From positions 441,051 to 505,050 of the forward strand of contig CAVSPA010000007.1 of assembly GCA_963729715.1 (NCBI GenBank): a stretch of DNA of 64,000 nucleotides. Direction: 5' to 3'. Every line of letters begins with the position of its first letter. Position 1 is the stretch's first letter. Made by a program: the position numbers and the translations under genes. This document shows, one piece after another, positions 45,687-64,000 of the stretch. The DNA comes from an uncultured delta proteobacterium. Lineage in GTDB: Bacteria > Desulfobacterota > Syntrophia > Syntrophales > UBA2185. The notes beneath the pieces are model-generated. The model was given only the letters and a program-made list of their open reading frames with translations, ran no database searches and had not been told where the DNA came from.

Positions 45687-45957
45687 GTCACTTATAATAC
45701 CTCAGTTGAGCCGTGACAAAGTACCGATGGAAAGAGTTTTACAGATTTTCCGGCTTGAAGCAACAGAAATTGTCAAGCTGTCGGCAAGAACATCCATACT
45801 AAGGCAAAGGAAATGGCCGGGTGCAGATCTTGGTTGGCCATTTTCACATGTCCAAAACTACACCGCAGATATGAATCAGTCCAGTTGCAGGCCTGACAAG
45901 CTATACGAGCCACTTACCTGGTGATCATTATATGGTTGCTTGTCGTATCTCTTTTTA

Positions 45958-46518: not shown

Positions 46519-46553
46519 CGCCTGTTTCCTCCTTTCTCTTCATTGATGTTGCA

Positions 46554-47294: not shown

Positions 47295-47365
47295 GATGAA
47301 CCTCCCTGATGTCTAACTCCCGTCTCGATTATTGTCGGGGCATTATACCAATTATTTTATGAATA

Positions 47366-47418
47366 GTGTAACAGCTCAAATAAGCGGCGGACCGGTACGC
47401 TGCATTTGATTGTTAGGT
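47366..47418 (-). mobile_element. Degenerate integron attC-like site
   Basis: Minus strand ACCTAAC-AATCAAATGCAGCG...CCGCTTATTTGA-GCT-GTTACAC; RYYYAAC overlaps the gene's stop codon. Confidence 0.6.
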
Positions 47419-48192
47419 CAATATAACTTCTTCCCAATTGGGTTCCCACAAAAAATTGCCAATTGAAATTTCCAGGGAGTCCTCAACCATTCTACCTATA
47501 CGATTAATATGTTGACGAAGAGACATTTCACTGACCATTGCAACAAAGCGTACCAATTGCTGTGCATTCGTTTCCTCCGCTCTCGCAACTTGCCAAAATC
47601 TACGTATTCCGTCATTGTGTGGTCTATAAATTCCTTTTCCAAGAACGCAGATTATACTAACTTTTCCAGATACCGGGTCCATTCCGCTTCTTTGACATGC
47701 TTCATAGAAACGCATGATCTCATTCTTATCTCTTGCTCTTGAATCATACCCAAACAAATAATTGTGCGCTCCCTCTATTCCCTTGGGCTGTGAACGGACA
47801 TCAACTTTGAACTGTGCGACAGCTTGGCTGCGTTTAACAAATTGAAGGTAATCCTCTGCTTCAAGACTAGATTTGACCTCTATTCGACCAAGTACTCCAT
47901 TATAGTGATAGACCCCGTTTGTGCCACCGAAGTACATTTTTATGGCTGGAGTAATTTCTCTGTCGTACAAGATTACATCATCTGCACCTTCGTGCTGTTC
48001 CTGATCTCTTGTGTCGATTATCGTACCTTTTCCTGGCTCAAGGAAATAAGGAAGCCTAGTTGCCATGAATGCAAGCAAGATATCCTCTCTCAGAGTACCG
48101 CGCAAATTCTTGTGTTTTATTTTGTTCTGAATAAAGGATTTGTTAATAGCCGCTTCCGCATCAGCAAGTAATGTTTTTGCAATGTAGTGCAT
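47413..48192 (-). CDS. DUF6602-like protein, putative PD-(D/E)xK nuclease-like fold
   Basis: H...RGTLRE, GTIID, DVILYD and IEVKSSL; visibly AT-richer than its neighbours. Confidence 0.65.
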   Translation of the reverse strand: MHYIAKTLLADAEAAINKSFIQNKIKHKNLRGTLREDILLAFMATRLPYFLEPGKGTIIDTRDQEQHEGADDVILYDREITPAIKMYFGGTNGVYHYNGVLGRIEVKSSLEAEDYLQFVKRSQAVAQFKVDVRSQPKGIEGAHNYLFGYDSRARDKNEIMRFYEACQRSGMDPVSGKVSIICVLGKGIYRPHNDGIRRFWQVARAEETNAQQLVRFVAMVSEMSLRQHINRIGRMVEDSLEISIGNFLWEPNWEEVILT

Positions 48193-48440
48193 GTTAGTCT
48201 CCCTAAAAATATACAGTCTGTATAAGGCGACTTAAAGTACGTCTAATGGGCTACGCAAACATGCCGTTGTTTAACACTTAGGTGTAAATCATTACGCCGT
48301 AAATAAACTACTTTATACGTCATTTGTCAAAGATTTTTGATTCTGGGAAAGACCTGCCACAAGATGAATATTTCTATTTATTATCAGTGCTGTCTTAAGC
48401 CTTGGACTGCAGGAAGAAGTCTGGGATCAAGCCTGATGTC

Positions 48441-48466
48441 TATGGTGGTGAAGCCGGGACGTAAAC
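48441..48466 (-). repeat. Degenerate copy of a tRNA-Leu-like 3' end (relic att site)
   Basis: 21/26 identical to 63151-63176 in the same orientation. Confidence 0.55.
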
Positions 48467-48506
48467 AGAGATGAAGTGATTTTTACGGCTGCCCGGTTGA
48501 AGTATC

Positions 48507-49667
48507 CTAATCCAATTCCGACGCCTCCCGGACGGAGAGAAATATCTTGTAAAGGACCGTGATAATCAGGAACCCCATGGCCCAGATACCAATGGCAATC
48601 GCCACTTCCGGCCCGGTGGGGATGTAGCGGGTGATGTGGCCTAAGGGCGAGGGGGTGAAGCCGGTCACCATCAGGCCGAGACCTTTTTCTATCCAGAGGG
48701 AAAGAAATACCAGGCCGCAGGCCACGGCCAGAAAGGAATCCTTCTTCCGTGTCCGGGGATTGATCAGCAGCACAAGGGCTGCCGCGGCTGAGATGACCGC
48801 AACAGTCATCGCGTGTGCAATGGTGTTATAGCCCTCCAATCCCACGAAGAGAAAATGGTAATGCCCCATGTCGTCCGGAATCTGACTGTAGAAAACAGTC
48901 CAAAGCTCCACCAGCACGAAGAATATGGTCGCAATGAAGGCGTAGGTCACGATTGTCGCTAACGTGTCTATCGCCTTTTTCCCGGCGTCAAATCCGCCGA
49001 AGCGCCGGAGCACGAAGCACAACAGGATCAGCAGCGCCGGCCCGGAAGCGAAGGCTGCGGCCAGGAACCGGGGTGCCATGATCGCCGTGAGCCAGAAGCT
49101 CCTGCCGGGCATGCCTGCATAGATGAAGGCCGTCACCGTATGGATGCTGATGGCCCAGGGGATGGAGAGATAGATAAAGGGCTTAACCCAGGCCGGCGGT
49201 GGGACGCCTTCTTTTACACTGGAGAGAACCGTCCAGCCGGTGATCACGTTGAGCACAAGATAAACGCTGACCACCACCATGTCCCAGAAGAGCACCGACG
49301 TGAGGGATGGATAGAACATGACATACAGTACCCGCGAGGGCTGGCCGAGGTTGACGAAGATAAACGTGACGCACATGATGACGGCCGCTATGGCGAGAAA
49401 TTCCCCGAGGACGGTGATCCTTCCGAATGCCTTGTAGTTATGCAAATAGTACGGCAGGACGACCATCACAGCCGAGGCGGCGATCCCGACCAGGAAGGTG
49501 AACTGGGAGATGTACAACCCCCATGAGACATCGCGGCTCATGCCGGTGAGAGCTAGGCCGTACTCAAGCTGGCGGAGGTAGAAATATACGCCTGTCCCGA
49601 AGAGGGCAAGGAGGATTCCCACCAAGATTCCGTATCGGCGGCTTCCTGTCAGCGCTTTTTCCAGCAT
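48507..49667 (-). CDS. dsrP: DsrP (NrfD/PsrC family)
   Basis: TGMSRDVSWGLYI, WAISIHTVTAF and APRFLA; operon position. Confidence 0.93.
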   Translation of the reverse strand: MLEKALTGSRRYGILVGILLALFGTGVYFYLRQLEYGLALTGMSRDVSWGLYISQFTFLVGIAASAVMVVLPYYLHNYKAFGRITVLGEFLAIAAVIMCVTFIFVNLGQPSRVLYVMFYPSLTSVLFWDMVVVSVYLVLNVITGWTVLSSVKEGVPPPAWVKPFIYLSIPWAISIHTVTAFIYAGMPGRSFWLTAIMAPRFLAAAFASGPALLILLCFVLRRFGGFDAGKKAIDTLATIVTYAFIATIFFVLVELWTVFYSQIPDDMGHYHFLFVGLEGYNTIAHAMTVAVISAAAALVLLINPRTRKKDSFLAVACGLVFLSLWIEKGLGLMVTGFTPSPLGHITRYIPTGPEVAIAIGIWAMGFLIITVLYKIFLSVREASELD

Positions 49668-49674
49668 GGCATCC

Positions 49675-50460
49675 TCATAGAATATAATAGACCTGCGGTT
49701 TCGTTCCCAGCTCCGCCCTCCGGCGGATCGAGAATTTCTTGTCGAGAATCTGACGGACTTTCGAGTTGGGATCTTCCGCGTCCCCGAAGACCAGTGCCTT
49801 TTCCTGGCAGGCCAGGACGCAGGCCGGGAGAATGCCCCGCGCTAAGCGTTCCTCGCAGAAATTGCATTTTTCGATCACTCCCTTCATGCGCGTCGGGAAA
49901 TCGAGGTTGAGCTTGCGGATGAAAGGCCGGGGATTTACGAAGTTGATGCTTCTCGCCCCGAAAGGACAGGCGGCAAGACATATCTTGCATCCGATGCAGC
50001 GATGCGAATCCATCATCACGATACCGTCCGCCCTTCTGAACGTGGCGCCCGTGGGGCAGACCCGCACACACGGCGGGTTGTCGCAGTGGTTGCAGAGAAC
50101 CGGTATAATCTTTTTTCGGACGTTCTCCTGAATGTGCGCATGACTCTCCGCAGGAAAGACGTTCTCAAACCGCTCCGGCCAGATCCACTTTATCTCGTGC
50201 TTGGGATTCGCTATGACCGGGACATTGTGCGCTTCGTTACAGGCGGTCATACAGTCCGCACAGTCGTCGCAGCACTTATTCGCGTCCACCACCATGGCCC
50301 AACGCTTCGCCTTCAGTGCCGGGGTGATACCCGGGGCGCCGGGGAGATGCGTTACCCGTGACGGTGTCTCTTTCGCAACGATCCTGCCGAGCGGTGGGCA
50401 GGCAGCGCCCATGGCTGAGAGACCCGCGATAATCAAAAATTCCCTCCGGGTAGGCGCCAT
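49675..50460 (-). CDS. dsrO: DsrO Tat-exported Fe-S protein
   Basis: TRREFL; CNHCDNPPCVRVCP, CIGCKICLAACP and KCNFC. Confidence 0.93.
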   Translation of the reverse strand: MAPTRREFLIIAGLSAMGAACPPLGRIVAKETPSRVTHLPGAPGITPALKAKRWAMVVDANKCCDDCADCMTACNEAHNVPVIANPKHEIKWIWPERFENVFPAESHAHIQENVRKKIIPVLCNHCDNPPCVRVCPTGATFRRADGIVMMDSHRCIGCKICLAACPFGARSINFVNPRPFIRKLNLDFPTRMKGVIEKCNFCEERLARGILPACVLACQEKALVFGDAEDPNSKVRQILDKKFSIRRRAELGTKPQVYYIL

Positions 50461-50861
50461 CACAGAACCTCCTCGGGGTTATTGTGGCAGTTCCAGCAGG
50501 TCGGCTTGACCCCGGCATAATCGTGGCACCGATCGCAGAAGCGGGACTTGTTCTCATGACACTTAAGGCAGTTGCCTGTGAGACCCATTTCAAATATCCT
50601 TCCGTCTTTTGATGTGTACACGCGGATATTTTTCCGTACCACGCTCTCCCGCCACGATGCCAGAAGCTTCATATGATTGTCGCGCATGAAGGCGGTGTCC
50701 TCCACGCAGCGCTTATCCGCAAGCTTCTGGATTGCAGGCGTGTCGAGCTCGATGGCAGGCGGGGCAATGGTTTTCCCCCGGTCATACCAGAACGGGAAAG
50801 TGACCGCGGCCAGAAAGACCACGATCCCTGCGATAATTATCCCCCGGTTATAGAGCTTCAT
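50460..50861 (-). CDS. dsrJ: DsrJ triheme cytochrome c
   Basis: CLKCH, CDRCH and CWNCH; CVE..MR..HM. Confidence 0.93.
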   Translation of the reverse strand: MKLYNRGIIIAGIVVFLAAVTFPFWYDRGKTIAPPAIELDTPAIQKLADKRCVEDTAFMRDNHMKLLASWRESVVRKNIRVYTSKDGRIFEMGLTGNCLKCHENKSRFCDRCHDYAGVKPTCWNCHNNPEEVL

Positions 50862-50874
50862 CGTCTGTCTTTCC

Positions 50875-52467
50875 CTAAAAAGTTTCGCCGCGCAGATCCG
50901 TTATCCTCTCTTTTTCACCCTTCATGACAAGGGCATTGGCCAGCAGTTCGTGGACGCCCGTCACCGTCACGCCGGGCACCCAGTACTCCATCAGCGAGGT
51001 CAGCGTCGAGCGGTCGATGGCGCACATGCAGGCGATCCGGTTCACGCCGTGCTTTTCCTTTACATGCTTTACGGCCATCGCACGGGGCATGCCTCCCCGC
51101 ATCCGCATCTCGATGTTCTCGTCATTGCCGAGACCGGCGCCGCCGCCGCAGCACAGTGTCTTTTCCCGGATGGTGTCTTCGGGCATCTCGTAGAAGTGCC
51201 GCACGGAATTCTTGATAACATACCTCGGCTCTTCGAAAAGTCCCATGCCGCGGGCGGGATTGCAGGAATCATGGAAAGTGATGCGCAGATGGTCGTTCCG
51301 CGCGGGATCCAGTTTCAGTTTTCCATGTTTTATCAGGTCGGCCGTGAATTCCGCGATGTGCACCATCTTCGTGGACCGTGCGTTTTCAAAGAGCGTCCCC
51401 GTTAGGGGAGACACCGGCTCTTCCAAAAAATCGGCGGGGCCGTTCATCGTATCCATGTATTCATGGATGACGCGCCACATGTGGCCGCATTCACCGCCGA
51501 GAATCCATTTGACCCCCAGCCGCTTCGCTTCCGCATAGATCTTGTTGTTGAGGCGCTTCACCATCTCATGTGATGTGAAGAGGCCGAAGTTTCCGCCTTC
51601 GGAGGCGTAGGTGCTGAAGGTATAGTTTAGGCCGATCTCATGGAAGAGCATCATGTAACCCATGCACGTGTACGTACCCGGGTCGGCAAAGTAGTCGCCG
51701 GAAGGCGTGATGAAAAGAATGTCCGCTCCCTTCTTGTTGATGGGAACCTCCAGCCTGACGCCGGTGCGTTCCTCTATATCGTCGGCTAAGAATTCAAGCA
51801 TGTCCTTTACGCCGCCGGGCTGGATGCCGAGGTGATTTCCCGTCCGGAAGGAGTTCGCCACCGGCTCGATGACCCAGTTGATGTTGCACCCGACGAGATT
51901 GAGGAGTTCCCTGCCCATTATGGTGATCTCCGCCTGGTCGATGCCGTAAGGACAATACACGGAACATCTGCGGCACTCCGTGCACTGGTAGAAATAGTAG
52001 AACCACTCCTTGAGGACAGGGAGGGTGAGGTCGCGCGCGCCGGCGAGCCTGCCGAAGCGCTTTCCCGATTCCGTGAAGTAGCGGCGATAGACGGAACGCA
52101 GGAGCTCCGCCCGCATGACGGGCATATTCTTCGGATCGCCGCCGCCGATGTAGAAGTGACACTTGTCGGCGCAGGCGCCGCACCGCACGCACAGGTCCAG
52201 GAAGAGCCTGAAGGAACGGTACTTGTCCAGGCGCTCACGCATGCCCTCAATAATGATCTCCTTCCAGTTCTCCGGAAGTTTCCAATCTTCTTCATATGGC
52301 TGCCAAGCCCTGGGGTTCGGCAAATCCAGGTAGATGAGATTCTTCGCGGCGCCGCTGTAGCTCCATGTCCCCGGCCGGAAATCGACGGGGGTGTCCATCC
52401 ACGACGTCCGCGGCGGCTTGTAGTTGACCCTGATCATCTCCTCGGGTTTGGGTATCTTGATGGGCAT
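50875..52467 (-). CDS. dsrK: DsrK
   Basis: CVRCGACADKC, CTECRRCSVYCP, SEGGNFG, GECGHMWR, HDSCN and CCGGG. Confidence 0.95.
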   Translation of the reverse strand: MPIKIPKPEEMIRVNYKPPRTSWMDTPVDFRPGTWSYSGAAKNLIYLDLPNPRAWQPYEEDWKLPENWKEIIIEGMRERLDKYRSFRLFLDLCVRCGACADKCHFYIGGGDPKNMPVMRAELLRSVYRRYFTESGKRFGRLAGARDLTLPVLKEWFYYFYQCTECRRCSVYCPYGIDQAEITIMGRELLNLVGCNINWVIEPVANSFRTGNHLGIQPGGVKDMLEFLADDIEERTGVRLEVPINKKGADILFITPSGDYFADPGTYTCMGYMMLFHEIGLNYTFSTYASEGGNFGLFTSHEMVKRLNNKIYAEAKRLGVKWILGGECGHMWRVIHEYMDTMNGPADFLEEPVSPLTGTLFENARSTKMVHIAEFTADLIKHGKLKLDPARNDHLRITFHDSCNPARGMGLFEEPRYVIKNSVRHFYEMPEDTIREKTLCCGGGAGLGNDENIEMRMRGGMPRAMAVKHVKEKHGVNRIACMCAIDRSTLTSLMEYWVPGVTVTGVHELLANALVMKGEKERITDLRGETF

Positions 52468-52469
52468 AT

Positions 52470-53462
52470 CTACTCCTTGTCCAACGGCAGTCCTGCCGCC
52501 TTCATCTTATCACGGTATTCGTTTTCGTATTCTTCATAGGTATGAACCTTGACGGGCGCATTCCAGGGATTGATGTGCCTCTTCATTCTGCTGTCGTTTG
52601 CCATGTTCCGCGTCGGGCTGAGAAATACTCCCCCCATGTGCATGAGCTTGCTGAAGGTAAACCACGCGAGGAGAACCGAGGCGAAAAGGAGGTGAATATA
52701 AAATAGAGCGCTCATTCCTTTAGGGACATAAGGCGCAAAGGTCACCCAGCCCAAGGCCATGGTCTTCACCTCTTCGATATCGCCGGGGAAGAAATGCCGC
52801 ATGAGGATGCCCGTAATCGCGATAGACAGGATTAGGGCAACGGCGAAATAATCGGTGAAGAGTGAGATGTAGCGGAGTTGTGGGACGACGGCCCTCCGCA
52901 GGAAGAGGAATGTCAACGCCAGGACTATCGCTGCATCGCTCAAGAATAACGTCGGTATAGCGATGTCAAAAAAACCGTCTATTGCCGCAAGGCCATTGAT
53001 GATGGGAGTAACGGGCTCGATGAAGAAACGCATGTGCCGCAAAATAATTACGAGCATCGACCAGTGAAAGAGAAGTGCAAAGAACCAGAGCCACTTGGCG
53101 CTCGAATAAACGGGCCGGTCATCGTAGAGATACAGCCGGGTGTTTCTGAAGAGTGAACGGAAGAGGAGAACCTCGAGGGCCATCCTGCCGATGACAGTGG
53201 CAGTGCACGGAGGGCTTTCCAGATAATCGCACTTGATCCAGGGCAATGATTTCTCCTGACCGCAGGTGGTGGGTATGGAAAAGGGGACAGGCAATCTTCC
53301 CCAGGATATGATTCGGTAGACAAAGCCTGCCACAAAAATGGCAAAGGCGCTGCAGGGAATGACAATGAAGAAGACAGGCCTCAGTCCTGCAATCGCGGCC
53401 CCGCCCATGGCGATAAAGATCAGGGTCACGATAGCAAGAAGAGAAAAGACCATGTTCATCAT
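52470..53462 (-). CDS. dsrM: DsrM cytochrome b
   Basis: PTTCGQ, FRSLFRN, FHW..RH and FSKLMHMGGVFLSPTRN. Confidence 0.95.
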   Translation of the reverse strand: MMNMVFSLLAIVTLIFIAMGGAAIAGLRPVFFIVIPCSAFAIFVAGFVYRIISWGRLPVPFSIPTTCGQEKSLPWIKCDYLESPPCTATVIGRMALEVLLFRSLFRNTRLYLYDDRPVYSSAKWLWFFALLFHWSMLVIILRHMRFFIEPVTPIINGLAAIDGFFDIAIPTLFLSDAAIVLALTFLFLRRAVVPQLRYISLFTDYFAVALILSIAITGILMRHFFPGDIEEVKTMALGWVTFAPYVPKGMSALFYIHLLFASVLLAWFTFSKLMHMGGVFLSPTRNMANDSRMKRHINPWNAPVKVHTYEEYENEYRDKMKAAGLPLDKE

Positions 53463-53490
53463 CCGTTACCTTTTCAAGGCCGTTAGTATT

Positions 53491-54870
53491 TTATGCCTTC
53501 CCCAAAAAGACTATGGCCTTCCCGAGGAGATCGTGGAGCCCCACAAGCTCCATATCCAGTTTATGCGCCTGGATAAGTTCCCGGAGCTGTTTTTTGCAGT
53601 TGGCGCAGGGGGCGCAGACGAGCTTAGCGCCTGTCGCCCGGAGTTGTTCCACTTTCTTGATCCCCGCGGTGGACATCCGCCAGTCGTGCAGATCCTCGAC
53701 GACCACGAGCCCGCCGCCGCCGCCGCAGCAGTAGTTCATCTTCCTGTTCGGCGTCATTTCGACGAAATGCATCACTGCCGCCTTCAACAGTTCCCGTGGC
53801 TGTTCATAGAGACCCGACCCTCGCCCCAGATTGCATGGGTCATGGTAGGTGACCGTCTCCGGGTTCTTCGTCGGATCGAACGTCAATTTTCCTTCTGCGA
53901 AAAAGCGGTGGCTGACCTCTATGATGCTCTTGATTTCTATGCCCCGGTATTCCGACAGCCCAAAGACCTTTTGGAAAAGGAGAGCTGTCTTCGTGGCGTG
54001 GCCGCATTCGCCGATGACGATGGTCTTGCATTTCAGCCTGTGCGCAGCTTCTAGGAGACGGTTGAGGATCTTTTCTAGATCCGCGTCGCTGTAGAAGAGC
54101 CCGTAATTGATGGCGTCGAAATTCTCCGTGCTGACGGTCCAGTTTGCCCCGGCGGCATGAAACGTCTTTGCGATGCCCAGAAGGGTGTCGGCCTCCATGA
54201 TGTAGTCGCTTACCGGAGCGGCAAAGAAAACCTCAGCGCCTTCTACGTCGCGGGGGATGGGGATGGCGATGCCCGTCTCGTCCCGCAATTCCTCTTCAAG
54301 AAAATCGAGGGTATCTATGAAGGCCGCCTTGGGAATGGCGGATGTGTTTCCTATCTCGCCGAGCTGCGCCCTGGTGCTCACGGTCATATTCGAGGGGACG
54401 AAACCGAGCCTTTCCAGGATAACGCGGCCGATCCGCGTGATCAGGGCATTATCGACAGCCAACGGGCAGTTAACGCCGCAACGCCGGCACATGGTACACC
54501 GGTAGAAGGCATCGACCATATTATCGATGTCTTCCTCTGTCAGCGCCTTGGCTCCCACGAGCCCGCCTAAGAGCTTTCCCGAAGTGGTAAAGTACTTCTT
54601 GTATACCTTCCGGAGGAGGTCGGACCGCCATGCGGGCAGATCACGCGGATCGCGTGAGGCCTGATAGACCTGGCACTGCTCCGCGCAGTTGTTGCACTTG
54701 GCACAGGTGCCGAGGTACGTCTCCAAAGGCAGGTTGTAGATCTTCGCTCCCAGGACCTCCTGAAGGGTCTCGAGGAAACGCATGACCCGTTCTTCGCGCG
54801 GCAGGGGCTTCTCGCTGCGGAAGGGATATTGGGGGTCTGTATCTTTGCTCTGTCCGTTCTCTTTAGTCAT
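53491..54870 (-). CDS. DsrK/HdrD-like Fe-S protein (second copy)
   Basis: CAKCNNCAEQC, CTMCRRCGVNC, GECGH, HDPC, CCGGGG and CANC. Confidence 0.88.
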   Translation of the reverse strand: MTKENGQSKDTDPQYPFRSEKPLPREERVMRFLETLQEVLGAKIYNLPLETYLGTCAKCNNCAEQCQVYQASRDPRDLPAWRSDLLRKVYKKYFTTSGKLLGGLVGAKALTEEDIDNMVDAFYRCTMCRRCGVNCPLAVDNALITRIGRVILERLGFVPSNMTVSTRAQLGEIGNTSAIPKAAFIDTLDFLEEELRDETGIAIPIPRDVEGAEVFFAAPVSDYIMEADTLLGIAKTFHAAGANWTVSTENFDAINYGLFYSDADLEKILNRLLEAAHRLKCKTIVIGECGHATKTALLFQKVFGLSEYRGIEIKSIIEVSHRFFAEGKLTFDPTKNPETVTYHDPCNLGRGSGLYEQPRELLKAAVMHFVEMTPNRKMNYCCGGGGGLVVVEDLHDWRMSTAGIKKVEQLRATGAKLVCAPCANCKKQLRELIQAHKLDMELVGLHDLLGKAIVFLGKA

Positions 54871-54883
54871 ATGTGCTCTGCTG

Positions 54884-55543
54884 TCATTTTTTTTGCCAGT
54901 TGATATGGTGATAGGTGAAGTACTTGGAGACGTAATGGATCATTTTACTCAACGGCAGATAGATCAAGAAAAGTCCTCCGAGAAACACGGCCAGAATATG
55001 GACTGTGGAGAGGACTGACGTGTTGGGGTGGAATTTGATCAAACCCAGGAAGTACAAGCGTAAAGAAACGGGGACATGTGGCACAGAGGCCGCGAATCCT
55101 AAAGCAGCCACACCTCCCAGAAATGCAAGATTGAAGAATTCCTCGAAGTTTGAAAGCAGCCTGAGGTTCTTATCGTAGATGCGCAATCCGATGATATAGA
55201 TTGCGGCAATCACGATGGCCAAGAGACACAACTGTACGACAAACATTGTTGACCATCCCGCAAGGTACAGGATGAAAAAAAGGACAGCCCCTACCATCGT
55301 CATGTGCATAGAGAACGACCCGAACCAGAGGCGGCGGTTGAATTTGTAGAGGGTCTCGAAGGTGAACATTTCCTTCGCCATGTATCTCAACTGGCCAGCA
55401 ATTCCCTCCGGCGCCGGATATAACGTCCATTTGACGTGGGGCGGCAGTGACAGCCAGTGCACGAACCGCCATGCCGTAGAGAGCAGGCAAAGCGCGACGG
55501 CTATATACGGAAAGATATCGGCAATAAATTCTGAACCTGTCAT
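54884..55543 (-). CDS. Short DsrM/NarI-like cytochrome b (second copy), 219 aa
   Basis: Start overlaps the dsrC stop; FSMH, VHIL and PLSKMIH. Confidence 0.8.
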   Translation of the reverse strand: MTGSEFIADIFPYIAVALCLLSTAWRFVHWLSLPPHVKWTLYPAPEGIAGQLRYMAKEMFTFETLYKFNRRLWFGSFSMHMTMVGAVLFFILYLAGWSTMFVVQLCLLAIVIAAIYIIGLRIYDKNLRLLSNFEEFFNLAFLGGVAALGFAASVPHVPVSLRLYFLGLIKFHPNTSVLSTVHILAVFLGGLFLIYLPLSKMIHYVSKYFTYHHINWQKK

Positions 55544-55863
55544 CAGACGCACCCGGTCGGTTTCGAAAGTCCGGCGAGCTTGCAGGCCCCTTTGGCAGGC
55601 CCTGTCGGAAAGAGCTCGTAGAGCCTCTTCATATCGATGCCGTTGTCCTTGCACAGCTTGCGGATCATCGGCGCGATACCGAACTTCTGGAAATAATCCC
55701 TGAGATAGTTGATGATCTTCCAGTGTTCTTCCGTCAATTCCCCCTCAATAGCTTCCTCTTTCGCATAGGCCTGGGCGAACTCTTTATTCCACTTGTCCAG
55801 TTCCTGAAGGAACCCATCTTCATCGATTTCATACTTCTTTCCTGCCAGTTCTATCTCGGGCAT
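55543..55863 (-). CDS. dsrC: DsrC
   Basis: DEDGFL, LTEEHW, LFPTGP and C-terminal C-X10-CV. Confidence 0.97.
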   Translation of the reverse strand: MPEIELAGKKYEIDEDGFLQELDKWNKEFAQAYAKEEAIEGELTEEHWKIINYLRDYFQKFGIAPMIRKLCKDNGIDMKRLYELFPTGPAKGACKLAGLSKPTGCV

Positions 55864-55934
55864 GCTCGAAACCTCCTATCGTGCAATAATATATATTTGA
55901 ATACTTTCTTATTGATGCCTGGCCTGCCGCGGGC

Positions 55935-57344
55935 TTAGCTGAGCGCGCTGTCTTTCCTGTCTGCTCGAAACCTTCTTGCCCTGCCGACGATGCCTTCCGC
56001 CCATTCCCGAGTTCCCAGGGCGTGTACGTGGGTGAAAGTTGCCAGCACGTTTTTCCGGCAGAGCCCGTCTCTCGTGCCGTCCATGCCGATTCCCCGCTTG
56101 ACCAGGAAAGCCAGATGTCCTTCATCCTCTTTCCGGGAGAGAATCCGGGAGTAATGAAACTCGTGGCCCATAATCTCAGTCCCGACAGGATAAAAGGGGT
56201 TTTCCTCTTCCACCTGGAGAACCGTGTATCCATGCCCCTGCGGGCGCTTTTCCATCCCGACCGAGATGGGCAGAAAGCCGACCATGGAATAATGCTTATC
56301 GCCGACGGTCAGCGATTCCCCGAGGAACATGAGGCCGCCACACTCTGCATATATCGGCAGTCCCTGTTCCGCCGCGTCCCGCAGGGAGCGGCGAAACGAT
56401 TTATTCCCGGCAAGAAGCCCGGCCTGCGTCTCCGGGAAACCGCCCCCTATATACAGGGCATCCAGGGAAGGCAGCTCATCATCGCTGATGGCGCTCACTT
56501 GTATGACCCTCGCGCCCGCTCTCGCGAGCGCCTCGATGTTTTCCGGGTAATAGAACTGAAAGGCCCTGTCTCTGATTACGCCGATGGTAACCGGGTCTGT
56601 CGGCTCTGCTGCCGGGAGGACATCGGGAAACAAAAGGTCTTCCCACGGCGGAGCGCTTTCGGCGATCTTTATCAGACCTTCCAAGTCCAGATAGTTTCCG
56701 GCGATGTCCGCCGCTCTGCGCAAGGCTTGAAGGACCCGGTCATGTTCCTGGGGCGGGATCAACCCGAGATGTCTTTCCGAAAAAGGGATATCCGCCATTC
56801 GCGGAACGGTGCCGAGAACGGAAATACCGCAGTGGTCTTCCACAGACCTGCGGATAACGGCCGCATGTCGGTCTCCCGCTACACGGTTCAGGATCAAGCC
56901 CCGGATATCCACCTCCGGATCGAAGTGCTGGCACCCGAGAACCATAGCCGCCGCGGTCCGTGTCACTTTGTCGCAGTCGATCACGAGGATCACGGGCGCC
57001 TTGATAAGTTTGGCGAGCTCGGCCGTGCTGTGCTCTCCTCCCGCATTCGCCCCGTCGTAAAGCCCCCGGTTCCCTTCGATCAGTGAAATAGCATTCGAAG
57101 GGGCATGACACGAAAAGGAGCGGGCGACCTGTATCCGTCCCATCAAGAACGTGTCGAGGTTGTAGCAAGGATTCGCAGCGGCCATGGCAAGCCAGGCCGC
57201 ATCTATATAATCCGGCCCCTTCTTAAAAGGGATCACACTGACGCCGCGTTTGTGGAGCACCGCAGCCAACGCCGCAGAGAGCGTCGTCTTGCCGGCGCTG
57301 CCGCGTAAGGCCCCGATAACCAGCCGGGGACATGGTCGGCTCAT
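55935..57344 (-). CDS. dsrN: DsrN (siroheme amidase, CbiA family)
   Basis: GKTT, KKGPDYID, EGNRGLYDG, ERHLGL, AECGG and HEFHYS. Confidence 0.92.
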   Translation of the reverse strand: MSRPCPRLVIGALRGSAGKTTLSAALAAVLHKRGVSVIPFKKGPDYIDAAWLAMAAANPCYNLDTFLMGRIQVARSFSCHAPSNAISLIEGNRGLYDGANAGGEHSTAELAKLIKAPVILVIDCDKVTRTAAAMVLGCQHFDPEVDIRGLILNRVAGDRHAAVIRRSVEDHCGISVLGTVPRMADIPFSERHLGLIPPQEHDRVLQALRRAADIAGNYLDLEGLIKIAESAPPWEDLLFPDVLPAAEPTDPVTIGVIRDRAFQFYYPENIEALARAGARVIQVSAISDDELPSLDALYIGGGFPETQAGLLAGNKSFRRSLRDAAEQGLPIYAECGGLMFLGESLTVGDKHYSMVGFLPISVGMEKRPQGHGYTVLQVEEENPFYPVGTEIMGHEFHYSRILSRKEDEGHLAFLVKRGIGMDGTRDGLCRKNVLATFTHVHALGTREWAEGIVGRARRFRADRKDSALS

Positions 57345-57372
57345 GCTCTATCACCCACGCAAGCCACCACCG

Positions 57373-57597
57373 CTATTCCTTCGGATAACATTCCGCCAGC
57401 ACAAGATATGTCGTGCTTCCGCTTGACCAGTATTTCACGGCGTCCTCCTCGATGAGGGCCTTCACGACATCCTGGACGGCATGCCGGTCTTCATCAGGAA
57501 ACCATTTGACGACGTCACGGATGTAGAACATCTTCTTTTCACCTTTCGATCTCTGGCAGAACGCCTCAAGGACCTTTGCTTTCAGATCCTCGCTCAT
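57373..57597 (-). CDS. dsrD: DsrD
   Basis: KMFY..D and YWSSGSTTY; lies directly after dsrB. Confidence 0.88.
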   Translation of the reverse strand: MSEDLKAKVLEAFCQRSKGEKKMFYIRDVVKWFPDEDRHAVQDVVKALIEEDAVKYWSSGSTTYLVLAECYPKE

Positions 57598-57599
57598 GC

Positions 57600-58658
57600 T
57601 CACCTCCATTTAAACTGCGTCGATGATCTGAACGTTTCCGTCGCCATATCGAAATCATCGATGTGCTTGTCCGTGAAGGGAATGCCCGTCAGGTTGAAGA
57701 ACCTCTCCCAGCCGATGCGCTCGATCCACTCGCCGACTCGCTCATGCTTCCTCGCATTACTCGCGTAGACCTCGATGATGTTCTTCACAGCGGCAACGGT
57801 TTCCGGCCACAACGGCGGATTGTTCGGCAGGTAGGGAATTGCCAGTTTGGAAAACATCGGTTTGCTCCGGGCATTGGAGACCTTCCCCCCTACCCAGATG
57901 GAAATCCCGTCGTTGTCCGCATCGGCAATGGGCATGGCTGGGCATACGGTGTAGCAGTTCCCGCAGTACATGCACTTGTCGTTGTTCACGCTGACCGTCT
58001 TGGTCTTGCTATCACCGCGGATGGCCCCCGTCGGGCACGACGCCACTGTCGTCGGGATTTCACAGAGGTTCGGGATGCGGGTATTGTCCGGCTTGGGGAC
58101 CGTCCGATGGATGCCGAGGATCGCAATGTCGGAGCAGTGGACGGCGCCGCACATGTTCAGGCAGCACGCGAGCGCGATCCGCACATGGTTGGGCAGTTTC
58201 ATCGTCACGAAATATTCGTAGATCTCTTCCATCAGCGCCTTGACGGGGCCCGATGCGTCCGTTGCCGGCGTGTGGCAGTGCACCCACCCCTGTGTGTGGA
58301 CGATATTCGAAACCGCGTGCCCGATGCCGCCCACCGGGTAGTTCTTCGCTTTCAGCTCCGCAAGGAGTGGGGCTACCTTCGCCTTGTCCTCGATAAGGAA
58401 TTCGATGTTGTTGCGGCTCGTGAAACGGAGATAGCCGCTGCAGTACTTCTCGGCGATATCGCAGATTTCCCGGATGTGGTCCGTTGAAAGCAGCCGCGGC
58501 GAGCCTGCGCGCACCGTATAGAGCGCGTCTCCTGTTTCGCCGACGTGCACCATCAAACCGGGCTGGAGGATTTCGTGATACCGCCACTTCCCGTAATTGC
58601 GCTGAATCATGGGGGGGAGCATGGTCTTAAAATCTGGGGGTCCGATATCGGTTGGCAT
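57600..58658 (-). CDS. dsrB: Dissimilatory sulfite reductase beta subunit
   Basis: [31 protein letters not shown] and CMYCGNC. Confidence 0.98.
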
Positions 58659-58659
58659 A

Positions 58660-59853
58660 TCACTTCACCTCCTTTTTCTTGATATCTTCAGGCCAGAAGA
58701 AGACGTATGGATTTGTCCTCGGGGCCTTTACCATCTGAGGCAACGCGGGAAGTCCCACTGCCCGCAGGAATGTCCTCATGCCCACGCGCTTGATGAGTTC
58801 CCCGACCCGTTCGCGGGAGCGAGCAGTTTCACTCCACCAGTCCTGGATCTTGGCAATGAGGTCTTTCAATTCCGCGTAAGGGGGTTCCAGCTTCATGTAC
58901 GGCACGATGACCCAGGAGAGGAGCGCCCCTTCCACGATGGGGGCCTTGCCGCCGATCAGGAGAGTTGCACCTCTTTCCCCTCCCGGCCTCAGGGCCTTGG
59001 GCATCAGGTTGATGCAGTGCATGCACCGTGTGCAGTCCTCATCGTAGATTTTCAATTCCTTCCCATTATAGACCATACATCTCGTCGGGCAGAGGTTGCA
59101 GACTTCCCTCTGGATATCGAGGCCTGAAGCGGCATAGGCCGTGACTTCCTTCTGGTCTATCGGGATATCGCCCTTCCACGTGCCGATGATGGCCAGGTCC
59201 GATCGGGCGATAGAGGCAACGCAGTCATTGGGACAGGCCGCGACCTTGATCTTGAATTTGTATGGGAACATGGGGCGGTGGATCTCGTCCTGGTAGGTCA
59301 TGGTGATGTTGTAGCATATATCGAGGCTGTCGATGCAGGCCCACTCACATCGTCCCGGCCCCACGCAGGCGCTGGGCGTCCGCAAGGCCGAGCCGGACCC
59401 GCCAAGGTCAAAGCCCTTAGCCGAGATATCATCGAAGCACTCCTGAAGGTGATCCGTTGTGGTTCCGAGGAGAATGATATCGCCGGTGGAGCCGTGCATG
59501 TTCGTCAAGCCGCTCCCATGTTTGTCCCACACTTCACAGAGATTGCGCAGGGCCTCGGTCTTGTAGAACCAACCCGTCGGATGATTTACCCGCAGCGTGT
59601 GAAACGCCTGTACATTTGGGAACTTCTCCGGGCAGTCCGAGTATCGGCCGATGACGCCTGATCCATAGCCCTTGACGCCGACGATCCCGCCATGCTTCCA
59701 GTGGCCGATTTTTTCTTTATAGGAAAGCTCAAGCTGCCCGAGAAGATCCTTAGCCATAGGCTTCTTCTTGGCAGCCTGCTTCATGTCGTCGATGAAGCTT
59801 GGCCATTTTCCGCCTCCCAATTGGTCGAGAAGGGGCGTATCTGATTTTCCCAT
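58660..59853 (-). CDS. dsrA: Dissimilatory sulfite reductase alpha subunit
   Basis: [34 protein letters not shown] and KFKIK..CPNDC. Confidence 0.98.
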
Positions 59854-59876
59854 GTTGTCCTACCTCCTTATCTTAA

Positions 59877-61451
59877 TCATCCTATTTTCATCCAGTAATC
59901 CTTGAATGTCACTGCGGATAGCACTATGCCCAGCGGGACATTGACGATGACACCCATGGTAAAGGCCCAGAAAGGCTTCAGTCCAAAGTGAGCCAGCTCC
60001 GCAAAACGTGTCGAGAGGCCGATGCACAGGAAGCAGAATACGAATGCCCAGGTGCGGAGCTTCTTGATCGGCGTGATCACCTCAGGGTTCAACACCTTGT
60101 TAAACCAGTTCGAACTGGCGACAAGTTGAGTGAACACAATCGCCTGCTCCGGCGTAGCGCTGGCAGTCAGGGCCTTCATATCCTCGGTGGAAAGTTGACC
60201 TTTGACAGTGACCACCCCTTTCCCCGCATCAACCGTGATGCGGTCTGCATACTGCGGGGGTATCTGGTACTGCGAGAAGTCCGCCTTGTAGTCTTTGTTT
60301 TTGAACTTTCCTTCCAGGTCGGCCTTGCCGAGATAAGTCGCCGGCACCATGGTGGAGACAAAGCTCATGATTAGTGAAGCCGCGAGGAATCCGAGGACAA
60401 ACTTGGGGAAACGCTCCCAGATGATGCCGCCGCCCACTGTTGCCTTCTTTTCGCCTTCACTCGTTTCCCAGTACATGACGGAGATAACGGACAGGATGAG
60501 TGCCCAGATACCTATCCAGATGTCCCGGCCGATAACCTTCATCAGGGTAAACGTATGGATCGGCGCCTCACCGAAACGGGCCGCCAATTCGGCGACAACG
60601 GCGAAACCGGCGGCGTCGGCAAACTCCGACGTGCCGACGATGGCTCCGGCAACCCCGGGGGTAATTGTTCCCGGAACGATCTGCTTCATGACGAAGGAAA
60701 GGATAAAGATCATTACAATGGCCCAGACCGTGACGACGGCAATAGAGATAGATGTGTGCTCGTTCTTTGCATTCACGGCGCCTCCCACCGCAATGGAAGC
60801 GGAGACACCGCAGACGGCGCCGCCCGCGCCGAGCACCGCCCCGAACTTGGGTTCAAGTTTGAAAATCTTTGTCGCAGCGAGGTAGATCGTGAGCCAGGTG
60901 GCAATAGAAACAATAGTCGCCTGGAGCATGGCTACGGGCCCGGCGGTGATGATCATGGTCAGGGGAAGTGTCGCCCCGAGAAGGACGATACCGGTCTTGA
61001 TGTAATACTCCGTACGCAGGGAGACTTTCATCCAGGCAGGAATTTTCACAGTATTGGAGATGATGAGCCCGACAAGCAGAGCGAGCAGCGGCGCTTCCAT
61101 ATTGAGATCCTCCATCAGCTTCCAGCCAGCGAGATAGAAGATGGCCCAGGAACCGACAAAAAGAATTATGAATCCTGGTATGAACTGTTTGATTTTATGG
61201 CCCATGATGGCCATGGATACGCTGAATACCGATCCGAAGAGGATAAAGATTGCCAGGTATCCCGTTAAATTCTTCGCCAGGTCCGCCCAGACCTTGCTGA
61301 ATTCGGTAAGCTTGGCCGGAACGACGACCCAGCCTTTGATAGATCCGCCCGCCCAGAAAGTGAAAATCGCGAGGAACACGATGCCGAGACCGAGCCACAC
61401 GGACCACCAGTCTTCTGTCTTCCACAATTTTTCGAATTCTTTGCCGCTCAT
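59877..61451 (-). CDS. YeiH / putative sulfate exporter family transporter
   Basis: EDWWSVWLG, RTEYYIKTGIVLLG, VCGVSA, GTSEFADAAG, RDIWIG and FPKFVLGF. Confidence 0.88.
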   Translation of the reverse strand: MSGKEFEKLWKTEDWWSVWLGLGIVFLAIFTFWAGGSIKGWVVVPAKLTEFSKVWADLAKNLTGYLAIFILFGSVFSVSMAIMGHKIKQFIPGFIILFVGSWAIFYLAGWKLMEDLNMEAPLLALLVGLIISNTVKIPAWMKVSLRTEYYIKTGIVLLGATLPLTMIITAGPVAMLQATIVSIATWLTIYLAATKIFKLEPKFGAVLGAGGAVCGVSASIAVGGAVNAKNEHTSISIAVVTVWAIVMIFILSFVMKQIVPGTITPGVAGAIVGTSEFADAAGFAVVAELAARFGEAPIHTFTLMKVIGRDIWIGIWALILSVISVMYWETSEGEKKATVGGGIIWERFPKFVLGFLAASLIMSFVSTMVPATYLGKADLEGKFKNKDYKADFSQYQIPPQYADRITVDAGKGVVTVKGQLSTEDMKALTASATPEQAIVFTQLVASSNWFNKVLNPEVITPIKKLRTWAFVFCFLCIGLSTRFAELAHFGLKPFWAFTMGVIVNVPLGIVLSAVTFKDYWMKIG

Positions 61452-61540
61452 GACATCCTCCTTTCAAAGATAACTTGTTTCTTTGTTGTTGTTCATGCAA
61501 TCATTATTTAAGGGTTCGGATGGACAAGATATATGATTTT

Positions 61541-61569
61541 ATGGTAGATAGAATTAAACCGTCTGTCAA
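61541..61569 (-). promoter_or_regulatory. Sigma70 promoter of the yeiH-dsr operon
   Basis: Minus strand TTGACA-N17-TACCAT. Confidence 0.7.
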
Positions 61570-61730
61570 GATTTTCTTTGACCGCAATTGTATCTTGTCG
61601 CTTAGGGATTCTCATTTGCAACTCCGTGATTTTATTTAGTCGATTTTGTTTTGAGCGATTGTTCGTAAGATAGAACATGAAGAATCTCCAGGAGTCCACA
61701 ACTTGGAGAATTCATCCGCAGGAAAAGCCT

Positions 61731-63029
61731 ATGGCCGAAAGAACGACCGGGACTCATCGCCGGAAAAAGTGTGCTTCAAAGAGGACGTGCGCCCTGCTCT
61801 GGGATGAATCGTTCGCCTGGGGGCTGATGGCCCACAAGGCTCTCACGGAGGCCGGTTTACCTTTCCATCTCCTCCGGTCAGAAGAGATCCGCGGGGGGGC
61901 GCTTTCCCGCTGCTGCATGCTGTATGTCCCCGGTGGCTGGGCGTCGCAGAAGCAGGCCGCCCTCGGAGATCGGGGAGAGAAAGAGATAAGGCGTTTTGTT
62001 GAGGAGGGAGGCAGCTATCTGGGAATCTGCGGGGGTGCGGGCATGGCCACGGAAGACGGTATAGGTCTTATGTCCATACGGAGGAAGCCTACGGCGGAAA
62101 GGGTTCCTAGCGTGAGCGGTCACGTCCGACTTTCCTTGGCCGGTCACAGTATCTGGAACGGCGTTGATGCGCCCATCTTTTTTGCATGGTGGCCTTCGCA
62201 GTTCCGGCTCGCAGATCAGAGCGCCCGCGTGCTTGCCTCCTATGAAGAAGTGCTGCCGGATGCCTTCAGTTCAGATATCTCTGTGGCCGACGGTCGGGTC
62301 ACGGGTTGGCCGGCCCTGGAGGCGCGTTACGGAATTCTCCTGGATCCGGCGCGTTTGCATGGTCAGCCCTCCGTTCTGGAAGGGCATTTTGGCCGGGGCA
62401 AAGTCCTCCTGTCACTCATCCATTTTGATACGCCGGGAGAACGAAACAGCGCTGTTTTATTGAGAAACCTCTGGGACTATCTGGCAACGGGTTGGTCTAC
62501 CGAATCTCCGATGGGAAAAACGCGTCCGCAAAGGCGACCCTTTCCGGACTCAGCGGAATTTCGTGACGTCATGGACGGGATTAAGACGGCTGTTTCAGAA
62601 CTGATCTCTACAGGCTCAAGAAATTTCCTCTGGCATTGGCGAAACCCCCTGCTCCTCCAGTGGCGCCGGGGAGTACGGGGACTGGAATACGGCACGCTGG
62701 CAGTGATGATAGAAGAAATCGGGAAACGCATCGATGGCGCTGATAGCGGGCAGGCACATGCCGCATCGCTGGATTTGTTACCCGTGAGAGAGGCAATTTT
62801 GGCCATCAGGGATCAGCTCATTCCCTTTGTAGAGAAGGCGAAGCGCCTTGTGATCAAGGAGCGGTTTTACATGAATACGGCTCTTCTCTCCCCGGTGGAG
62901 TGCGCCGATCCCGAGATAAACCGCCTGAGGCTGGAGCTCTTCGGATCCTCCATGAGTCACGGCGGAGATTTCAAACGGCTTATCGACATTGTCGACCGTC
63001 TTTTGTTTAACCTGATCCGGGAAGCATAA
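61731..63029 (+). CDS. BPL-N (glutamine amidotransferase-like) domain protein
   Basis: VPGGW and GGSYLGICGGA; start uncertain (61677 or 61731). Confidence 0.75.
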   Translation: MAERTTGTHRRKKCASKRTCALLWDESFAWGLMAHKALTEAGLPFHLLRSEEIRGGALSRCCMLYVPGGWASQKQAALGDRGEKEIRRFVEEGGSYLGICGGAGMATEDGIGLMSIRRKPTAERVPSVSGHVRLSLAGHSIWNGVDAPIFFAWWPSQFRLADQSARVLASYEEVLPDAFSSDISVADGRVTGWPALEARYGILLDPARLHGQPSVLEGHFGRGKVLLSLIHFDTPGERNSAVLLRNLWDYLATGWSTESPMGKTRPQRRPFPDSAEFRDVMDGIKTAVSELISTGSRNFLWHWRNPLLLQWRRGVRGLEYGTLAVMIEEIGKRIDGADSGQAHAASLDLLPVREAILAIRDQLIPFVEKAKRLVIKERFYMNTALLSPVECADPEINRLRLELFGSSMSHGGDFKRLIDIVDRLLFNLIREA

Positions 63030-63104
63030 CCGTTGCCGATCCCTGCGGAGCTATTCTAGCCCTCGCATTATTTGTCAGCAAACACCTGTCGGGCACTTGT
63101 TAAA

Positions 63105-63141
63105 AATAAAAGAGGTTGGCCTATCTCTAAGCCAACCTCTT
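63105..63141. terminator. Hairpin terminator next to the tRNA fragment
   Basis: AAGAGGTTGGC...GCCAACCTCTT with an A-run on the left. Confidence 0.7.
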
Positions 63142-63152
63142 GATGTCAATTA

Positions 63153-63176
63153 TGGTGCCGAGGCCGGGACTTGAAC
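63153..63176 (-). mobile_element. tRNA-Leu-like 3' fragment (att site of an integrative element)
   Basis: Minus strand GTTCAAGTCCCGGCCTCGGCACCA = T-loop, acceptor 3' strand and CCA, with no 5' half. Confidence 0.8.
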
Positions 63177-63329
63177 GCAAAAAAAGTGACTTAAACCAAA
63201 TGTCGATGTCTCCTGCGTTTCCTTAAATTATGCTTTATATTTCATTAGTTATGAGTGTGTTGGATAAATTCATTAAGTTCAGTATATTCATCTAACATCA
63301 ACGAAAAACGACCCAAAATGAACCCAAGG

Positions 63330-63827
63330 TTATTCTTTGCTATCAAAACTCAACGCCTTGAAAGCATCTTTCGGACAACCATACTTCAAATACGACATCG
63401 GTGATTCATTCAGATGAAGTGAAACATGAAAAGGCGATTGTTGACATTCGATGAGATAGACCTTCGCCTGAAATATAAGGTCATTCATTGATCCCATGAC
63501 TCTCCGATCCGTTATCTTAGAGAATGATATTTCATTGGCGAGAGGTTCAATGTATTTTTCAAATATGGATTTATTACCGTCGGCCGCCATGAATTGTTTT
63601 ATGTAGGTCAGGACTCCCTTAATAAAATTCTTTTCATTGCTCATGCCACGCCCATACATAATCATGGAATACAAAGACACGGTGTTGGTCAGGATGATAT
63701 ATTGAATACGTTGTGCCGTGAATAGATGGGCGCTCCAGTCTGCATATGGATTCCCTTCCTGCGAAATGATGTGCAGTTGCGTGATTCTGAGTTTCTTTGA
63801 GAGTCTTTGTGTGAGTCGGAGTATCAT
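63330..63827 (-). CDS. Hypothetical protein (DUF6933-like)
   Basis: MILRLTQRL, DWSAHLF and DRRVMGSMND. Confidence 0.6.
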   Translation of the reverse strand: MILRLTQRLSKKLRITQLHIISQEGNPYADWSAHLFTAQRIQYIILTNTVSLYSMIMYGRGMSNEKNFIKGVLTYIKQFMAADGNKSIFEKYIEPLANEISFSKITDRRVMGSMNDLIFQAKVYLIECQQSPFHVSLHLNESPMSYLKYGCPKDAFKALSFDSKE

Positions 63828-63849
63828 CTTTCCGTGATCTTTCTTGATC

Positions 63850-63999
63850 CTATCTCCAACCCTTCTTTTTTATCTTAAAGAGCTGATCCACCGATATGAA
63901 GTGAATCAGGGTTTTTTCATAACGACGCTGATAAGGGGATTTAATATTGGGACTCAGCACATAATTTTTCCCCTCAGGATAGAGCGATCGAAATACCAT
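63850..63999 (-). CDS. C-terminus of a gene running in from outside the window (possibly an AAA/DUF4143 ATPase)
   Basis: Open frame ..VFRSLYPEGKNYVLSP..KKKGWR*. Confidence 0.35.
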   Translation of the reverse strand: MVFRSLYPEGKNYVLSPNIKSPYQRRYEKTLIHFISVDQLFKIKKKGWR

Positions 64000-64000
64000 A

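Follow-up and report, generated by a model that had tools for sequence, protein, structure and literature searches.

A dsr operon beside tRNA-Leu(GAG) in a Syntrophales genus, probably carried by a decayed tRNA-targeted island

Lateral transfer of the dissimilatory sulfite reductase genes dsrAB has been inferred from phylogenetic trees for more than 20 years, and the locus described here raises the question of what vehicle may have carried them. The window, by which we mean the whole 64,000-nucleotide stretch analysed, is the terminal part of contig C7 in the genome (G000; 3.76 Mb in 19 contigs, approximately 49% GC) of an uncultured member of the Syntrophales. In this window, a unit of approximately 15 kb with the gene order BPL_N-yeiH-dsrABDNC-M2K2-MKJOP, where M2K2 is a second NarI-like/DsrK-like pair, lies between two direct repeats of a tRNA 3' end. 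The original prediction, made from the sequence alone, was that the operon arrived as a genomic island at this tRNA. That prediction is partly supported: a scar, the tRNA gene, an empty site and a conflict between trees were all found, whereas the delivery of dsr by integration is an inference. Judging from comparisons with 11 congeners (including G000), 11 other genomes of the family and further Syntrophales, all G-numbered, we consider that the block is probably a decayed tRNA island that resembles a cis-mobilizable element (CIME), and that it delivered dsr.

The features at the two ends of the block are the following.

48413-48440, minus strand: conserved segment of approximately 28 nt past the left repeat, weakly like the hairpin that follows the tRNA
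48441-48466, minus strand: left repeat, a decayed tRNA-Leu(GAG) 3' end (T-loop to CCA), putative old right attachment site (attR) of the dsr unit
48467-48506, minus strand: spacer of 40 nt between the dsrP stop and the left repeat
63110-63141, minus strand: hairpin with a 14-bp stem and a U-run after the tRNA end, a terminator and/or a relic attL arm
63151-63176, minus strand: right repeat, an exact displaced tRNA-Leu(GAG) 3' end (26/26), attR of a younger element
63177-64000: end of the younger accreted unit, with an attR arm and a DUF6933 gene (63330-63827, minus strand), GC approximately 40%

The two 26-mers lie where they had been reported, in one orientation and identical at 21 of 26 positions, with the left copy 40 nt beyond the dsrP stop (48507). 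The motif TGATGTC, said to stand directly by both copies, abuts the left one (48434-48440), whereas at the right one it lies 3 nt further off (63141-63147). The tRNA-Leu-like end proved to be that of tRNA-Leu(GAG), as all 29 nt of 63148-63176, the right repeat included, recur at the 3' end of the intact gene, which was found outside the window on contig C5 (G000:C5:743444-743530), downstream of gap-tpi-secG. The integrase expected beyond the 64 kb was also found there, as a split tyrosine integrase gene beside the tRNA.

The 26-mer is not a common dispersed repeat, which the original prediction had named as grounds for abandoning the idea. With up to 5 mismatches allowed, the matches in the genome are the tRNA, the right copy, an att copy on contig C2 (24/26), tRNA-Leu(CAG) (22/26) and the left copy; the chance expectation from base composition is 0.025 per genome and 2e-4 on one strand of the window. 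A reversed-pattern control gave 0 matches in 22 genomes. These counts rule out a dispersed repeat or a chance match, and tRNA and Rfam searches of the window gave no structured RNA or pseudo-tRNA.

The DNA following dsrP was aligned in the 11 congeners, in G015, another member of the family, and in G019. All 11 congeners have dsrP, so that the block is, as had been proposed, a fixed feature of the genus. The left repeat follows dsrP at a conserved spacing of approximately 40 nt in nine of them, and matches the tRNA end at 17-26 of 26 positions (26 in G010; 22 in G009; 21 in G000, G002 and, with an indel, G004; 20 in G003; 19 in G001; 18 in G005; 17 in G008). The decayed positions differ among the copies, and the majority of the eight copies other than that of G010 agrees with the tRNA at 22/26. 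Two metagenome contigs add copies with 24 and 22 of 26 matches, both past dsrP sequence. The repeat is deleted in G006 and is not recognisable in G015. A displaced copy of a tRNA end normally arises only by integration at that tRNA. These alignments identify the left repeat as a true, though decayed, att scar and not a chance resemblance.

The 28 nt past the left repeat are also conserved among the congeners and do not fold. Their comparison with the hairpins of the right repeat, G009 and G021 gave shuffle p values of 0.003-0.21, and the resemblance is not present in all copies. Such a weak likeness would be expected if a former host flank had been displaced.

Two further observations concern the DNA around the left repeat. 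For G010, the att core (G010:C115:9764-9789, locus L189) has 0/26 mismatches, as against 4/26 in the left att of its sister G009, and the flanks depart from the majority at 7/38 and 2/28 positions; the core was possibly refreshed through recent recombination. In addition, a stretch of 35-80 codons from the end of dsrP, in most cases together with the decayed att, recurs past small cargo genes (G002:C12:17997-18899, L023; G004:C20, L196 9947-11592; L315:2812-3028). The duplicates start at approximately codon 340 (G002 and L315) or codon 352 (G002 and G004), the DNA upstream of them differs, and the cargo between them is without an integrase. Breakpoints that recur in this way may reflect site-specific insertion into the 3' end of dsrP.

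On the tRNA side, which was read in G000-G002, G004-G007 and G009, G005, G007 and G009 each have the intact tRNA and the block on a single contig. The tRNA occupies the position of the right repeat in G009 and G007, and a copy of the tRNA end is found in G000, G004 and G006 where G009 carries the tRNA; the G002 contig begins with the tRNA end, and G001 has a tRNA-end copy 3.7 kb off. The outer arm of the right repeat matches att arms in G004, G006 and G019. The tRNA-end copies at the tRNA position of G009 indicate that the right repeat is a tRNA end displaced by younger elements. Both repeats are thus att sites, as predicted, but they are not the attL/attR pair of a single event, the right copy being the attR of a younger element, which for the dsr block only indicates the former place of the tRNA end.

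The original prediction also placed a younger element to the right of the block and no integrase inside it; tyrosine-integrase elements indeed sit between the tRNA and the block, and a search with two local integrase types found none within. An integrative and mobilizable element (IME) occupies tRNA-Leu(GAG) at the end of C5 (L016:8646-14933), with the split tyrosine integrase, a TrwC relaxase-helicase and a TrwB coupling protein. On C2, a second att is accompanied by an integrase fragment, and a type I restriction system and defence-like genes precede the next att. The att copies suggest the contig order C5-C2-C7, which would link the tRNA to the block. At least three integrase types target tRNA-Leu(GAG) in the family (the G008/G000, G017 and G011/G020 types). 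The DUF6933 gene at the end of the window is also present in G001, G004, G006 and G008, usually by an ATPase gene.

For the hairpin at 63110-63141, the fold energy is -22.4 kcal/mol (z -6.2). It resembles the arm preceding the integrase in G017 and at the G000 tRNA-Leu(CAA), with an attL-arm likeness of E 0.004 in the window. An integrase-type arm after the G005 tRNA was not counted as a dsr arm, since it probably belongs to the neighbouring ATPase unit. tRNA-Leu(CAA) hosts an integrase element as well (G000:C5:21956 and C3:16335), and its 3' end with more than 200 nt of the following sequence is duplicated on C3.

The consensus order in the congeners is secG-tRNA-BPL_N-yeiH-dsrABDNC-M2K2-MKJOP-att-cargo-crp-panE. 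In G005 (on a single contig), G007 and G009, gap-tpi-secG-tRNA-Leu(GAG)-BPL_N-yeiH-dsrA follow one another, with an ATPase gene after the tRNA in G005, and G005 runs on past dsrP through a lipoprotein gene, a histone-like gene, crp and panE. G005 contains many frameshifts, probably sequencing errors, and G006 is without most of dsrAB owing to a contig break. In the window, the corresponding flank is as follows.

43819-48192: left flank beyond the repeat, with variable cargo (DUF6602), a lipoprotein gene, a histone-like gene, crp (44973-45686) and panE (43819-44751)

Cargo past dsrP differs in nearly every congener. The gene at 45958-46518, for a histone-H1-like, Lys/Ala-rich protein, is kept in most congeners. 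Further out, a membrane gene at 39089-41233, which from its translation we take to be spermidine-synthase-like, appears split in two and shorter than its counterparts in the congeners, and is absent in G002.

Outside the genus, G015 alone among the 11 other family genomes has this DsrAB type, and an empty site, which the original prediction called for, was found at the level of genes in 2 of the 10 dsr-less ones. In G012, the tRNA is followed after 0.9 kb by crp-panE with no dsr between; in G016, 7 kb separate the tRNA from an amidohydrolase gene and a hydrolase gene, both of the same flank. RpoB places G016 outside both the genus and the genera closest to it, so that absence of dsr appears to be the ancestral condition. 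In the remaining eight genomes, either no tRNA was found or rearrangement, integrase elements or contig ends interrupt the link.

The closest relatives of DsrA, at 77-96%, are mostly from Syntrophales, Syntrophaceae, Smithellaceae and unclassified Deltaproteobacteria, followed by Anaerolineae at 67-71%. The suggested comparison of DsrAB with a host tree was made with RpoB as the host marker (DsrAB, 53 rows, quick maximum likelihood; RpoB, 61 rows, FastTree), and the two disagree, with moderate strength. In the DsrAB tree, the genus joins G015 and G041/G044/G046 (SH-aLRT 99), and then G042 and G043, whereas in the RpoB tree G041/G044/G046 are more than 0.4 distant and the nearest kin of the genus are dsr-less members of the family. 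RpoB identity is 77-78%, yet DsrAB identity is 89.5-95.1%, compared with a median of 84.8% in 571 other pairs at RpoB identities of 72-80%. DsrAB rejects the RpoB-like placement of G041/G044/G046 (approximately unbiased test, p-AU 2.8e-6) and also the pairing of G042 with G047 (1.1e-4), and RpoB rejects a single clade of the dsr-bearing family members (p-AU 2.7e-5).

These comparisons suggest that transfer of dsr is likely and was old; they do not fix its direction. A separate gain in G015 was not retained as a clear case, since the nesting of G015 in the genus is not significant (p-AU 0.20) and the synonymous divergence agrees with shared descent. One gain by the ancestor of the subfamily, followed by several losses, accounts for the data almost as well as separate gains in the genus and in G015. 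A divergent DsrP (54%) stands at a contig start in G019 (L074; G019:C283:13-705), with DsrA and DsrB unmatched; it represents either a second dsr lineage or a relic, and was excluded from the counts as a different lineage.

A history that accommodates these findings would run as follows. The block would have entered the ancestor of the genus, or of the subfamily, from another Syntrophales lineage, with dsr travelling as cargo of a tyrosine-integrase element whose crossover lay in the T-loop of tRNA-Leu(GAG). On integration, the tRNA would have been made whole again, while its former 3' end would have come to lie beyond the cargo, as what is now the left repeat. The element would then have lost its integrase and nearly all of its backbone. 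What was left, a trimmed CIME-like relic with the tRNA approximately 120 nt from one end and the att 40 nt from the other, may have been kept because of sulfite reduction by DsrAB, DsrC and DsrMKJOP. Further IMEs arriving later at tRNA-Leu(GAG) would have shifted its end once more, giving the right repeat and the C2 copy.

Several observations weigh against this history. At the ends of the block, the 40-nt spacer gave p<0.05 in 2 of 24 comparisons with known attR arms and no convincing alignment, and no integrase relic was found inside the block, either in the window or in the congener dsr loci searched. The deepest-branching congener, G007, is without a recognisable left repeat (9/26 by alignment). 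Hairpins like that of the window follow the tRNA in the dsr-less G021, G016 and G012, and other tRNAs; the hairpin may accordingly be host DNA, in which case dsr would lie outside a strict attL-attR pair. The empty site of G012 also is without the lipoprotein and histone-like genes, and its junction is not base-precise. In G015, the genes around the block are unrelated ones, and neither 19 kb of sequence to one side nor 8 kb to the other contains an att. When 60 DsrA loci were scanned, a tRNA was found in two, both congeners, although most loci end before the end of dsrP. A metagenome scan for the exact pattern gave 2 matches, both linked to dsrP, and no excised, circular or empty junction; viral contigs yielded no dsrA gene, one 12-residue DsrA match only, and 0 matches to the tRNA end.

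The trees and the composition of the block contribute further points of this kind. In a 28-row RpoB set without the dsr-less genomes, the family as sister to G041/G044/G046 is not rejected (p 0.17), and other pairs (G045 with genomes of the G048-G058 type) share 92-93% DsrAB identity at a similar RpoB distance. The excess identity to G041/G044/G046 at fourfold sites is 0.21-0.26 (rpoB, 0.02-0.03), which exceeds the background of 0.09-0.20 by little. The compositional check that had been proposed revealed a GC shift, the block having 55.6% GC as against 48.7+-2.2% in windows of equal size (top 0.14% of windows) and GC at third codon positions (GC3) of 0.62-0.79 as against 0.57+-0.07; this shift is not diagnostic of foreign origin. 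A native operon that we take from its translations to be Wood-Ljungdahl-like lies in a window of still higher GC, and operons presumed to be heterodisulfide-reductase-like are similarly GC-rich. The GC-normalised tetranucleotide distance of the block is in the top 9% of 246 windows, and in many low-GC Syntrophales as well the GC3 of dsr exceeds that of rpoB by 0.1-0.2. Composition was set aside as proof of transfer, because native energy-metabolism operons share the GC shift, though it is consistent with transfer.

The G015 placement, in particular, bears on an alternative in which the att scar is older than dsr or independent of it. The block would have dropped in later between the tRNA hairpin and an old attR, by homologous or illegitimate recombination, either from another Syntrophales or by relocation in the genome, and the att would record a hotspot, not the vehicle. 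G041/G044/G046, G042 and G043 also carry the block in other neighbourhoods, among housekeeping or heterodisulfide-reductase-like genes in G041-G046, and in the flanks read of this putative donor group no tRNA or tRNA-Leu(GAG) att was found near dsr; together with G015, these placements indicate that the block can move without leaving such a scar. The missing left repeat of G007, the hairpin by BPL_N common to the dsr-less G021 and G016, and the churning of the region (varied cargo, duplicated dsrP tails in G002 and G004, two versions of M2K2) point the same way. This alternative demands, however, that an older island was replaced to within 40 and approximately 120 nt of both its ends; moreover, the spacing between the repeat and dsrP is conserved, and genome and metagenome searches found no relative with this att but without dsr. 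We regard it as unlikely, though still a serious competitor. If the left repeat were instead the attL of an off-target integration just after dsrP, with the low-GC cargo as its remnant, dsr would never have been bounded by att sites. The dissimilarity of the 40 nt before the repeat to attR arms, the weak likeness of the sequence after it to the post-tRNA hairpin, and the variable, foreign-looking cargo that follows it would fit, but a strike in the same orientation within 15 kb of the true target is hardly to be expected in a 3.8-Mb genome. No second att lies beyond the cargo save inside the dsrP-tail duplicates, and the empty sites of G012 and G016 and the DsrAB conflict would be left unexplained, which makes this event improbable.

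Purely vertical descent at the locus, with loss of dsr in the dsr-less family members and incidental repeats, is the least probable of all. It draws on the wide distribution of this DsrA clade in Syntrophales (approximately 50/80 loci) and on the dsr divergence of G015 (fourfold excess 0.35), which is compatible with shared descent in the subfamily. Patchy dsrAB in Smithellaceae has been read as loss (PMC13685792) and bacterial Dsr is called mostly vertical (PMC10504309). It would require several independent losses among 10 family genomes and a relocation in G015, and the dsr-bearing family members do not form one RpoB clade; other Syntrophales do not have dsr at tRNA-Leu(GAG), and a tRNA-end copy 40 nt after dsrP would have no explanation. 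We accordingly retain the decayed island as the preferred account. A bolder extension, which we consider speculative and rather doubtful, is that complete dsr operons move among Syntrophales on tRNA-Leu elements and that the block is still occasionally mobilised in cis by adjacent IMEs; the perfect att of G010 amid decayed flanks and the duplicates of dsrP tail and att would be traces of such mobilisation.

The enclosed genes are those that had been named, as profile models confirmed.

48507-53462, minus strand: dsrMKJOP, five proteins over NCBIfam cut-offs (dsrM 52470-53462; dsrK 50875-52467; dsrJ 50460-50861; dsrO 49675-50463; dsrP 48507-49667)
53491-55654, minus strand: M2K2 (PF02665; CCG and Fer4)
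55543-55863, minus strand: dsrC (PF04358, 130.6 bits), with two C-terminal cysteines in the translation
55935-57344, minus strand: dsrN, a CobB-type amidase gene (TIGR00379 over cut-off), named by operon position
57373-57609, minus strand: dsrD (PF08679)
57600-58658 and 58660-59853, minus strand: dsrB and dsrA (TIGR02066 and TIGR02064 over cut-off)
59877-61451, minus strand: gene for a YeiH-family membrane protein, putative sulfur-compound transporter (PF03601; TIGR00698 under cut-off)
61677-63029, plus strand: gene for a BPL_N-domain protein (PF09825)

DsrA, B, M, K, J, O and P all exceed NCBIfam cut-offs, and DsrC, DsrD and BPL_N exceed Pfam cut-offs, so that with DsrN the full predicted reductive Dsr set is present. 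Every gene counted in the block (12) is a dsr gene, yeiH or BPL_N, integration and transfer genes being gone, and the ends from BPL_N to dsrP match a functional unit found in other Syntrophales. The BPL_N gene adjoins dsr in G015, G043, G044, G046 and others, in several Syntrophales families; among five family genomes searched, it was present in G015 and absent from four dsr-less relatives. In G015:C191 and G043:C1, a common 158-aa gene, presumably OsmC-like from its translation, directly follows dsrP and gives a right boundary unlike that of the genus.

For the M2K2 pair, the DsrK-like protein scores 343 bits with the DsrK model, under the cut-off of 400, and the longest open reading frame of the NarI-like gene overlaps dsrC, so that its actual start is probably further down. 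Two versions of the pair, approximately 35% alike, occur at the one operon position: the first in G000, G002-G005, G008, G041/G044/G046, G062 and G064, and the other in G001, G007, G010, G015 and the majority of other Syntrophales. This distribution suggests in-place replacement inside the operon.

Activation of sulfate needs Sat and AprAB, and Dsr alone handles sulfite. The sat model matched 0/11 congeners, and aprA gave no match above cut-off in G000, the genome searched for it. These results suggest that the system would reduce sulfite or draw on a sulfite source, not sulfate.

Among known systems, the block is closest to CIMEs, elements without integration and transfer genes that keep attL and attR and at whose target gene end later IMEs accrete (PMC5704250). 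In both, a block without an integrase is enclosed by a tRNA end and its displaced duplicate, and younger IMEs, here with a tyrosine integrase, a TrwC relaxase and a coupling protein, have accumulated towards the tRNA; the preferred history follows the three-step path described for CIMEs. The dsr block differs in being far older and genus-wide, in an attR that mostly matches at 17-22 of 26 positions, in arms that are not recognisable, and in a cargo that is a complete respiratory operon. Having no integrase, it does not qualify as an autonomous island, and on account of the arms its inclusion among the CIMEs is tentative. The vcrABC islands of Dehalococcoides, which are recent, strain-variable and specific for ssrA (tmRNA), with a serine-recombinase integration module (PMC3146451), share a terminal-reductase operon as cargo, tandem islands at an RNA gene, direct repeats of the 3' end and a crossover in the T-loop; the dsr block is, in contrast, old, fixed and without an integration module, and the local integrases are of the tyrosine type.

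The movement of clustered dsr genes as one block was proposed earlier as a "metabolic island" (Klein 2001, Friedrich 2002 and Mussmann 2005, as cited in PMC2702500, where the idea is called speculation). Whereas that proposal relied on clustering and phylogeny, an att scar, a target gene and an empty site are visible here, and whereas it concerned sulfate reduction, the present block is without sat, apr and qmo and covers sulfite reduction only. Syntrophales DsrAB have been placed in "uncultured family-level lineage 6" (PMC10591310), to which we would assign this DsrAB solely by host order, and Smithellaceae carry patchy dsrAB without aprA/sat (PMC13685792); the present case resembles both in a reductive, patchy Syntrophales DsrAB without sulfate activation. 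The Smithellaceae study explains the patchy distribution by loss; in the family studied here, there are signs of gain. In the portions available, PMC10591310, PMC10504309, PMC13685792 and PMC6018805 treat dsr transfer or loss without a vehicle, and those of PMC10591310 and PMC13685792 name neither an island nor an att for dsr. No paper documenting att sites, a target gene and an empty site around a dsr operon was found in a literature search that covered mainly openly readable papers, so that an earlier mention is possible. The mechanism is known; the cargo appears to be new.

Overall, the locus offers a concrete, testable case of a possible vehicle for dsr transfer. dsrAB is a poor species marker within Syntrophales. 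If dsr operons do move on tRNA-Leu elements, these would be the first identified vehicle of dsrAB, by which syntrophs would become sulfite respirers in one step. Syntrophs may acquire or shed sulfite respiration through a single 15-kb unit, which would be relevant to the ecology of wetlands and sediments.

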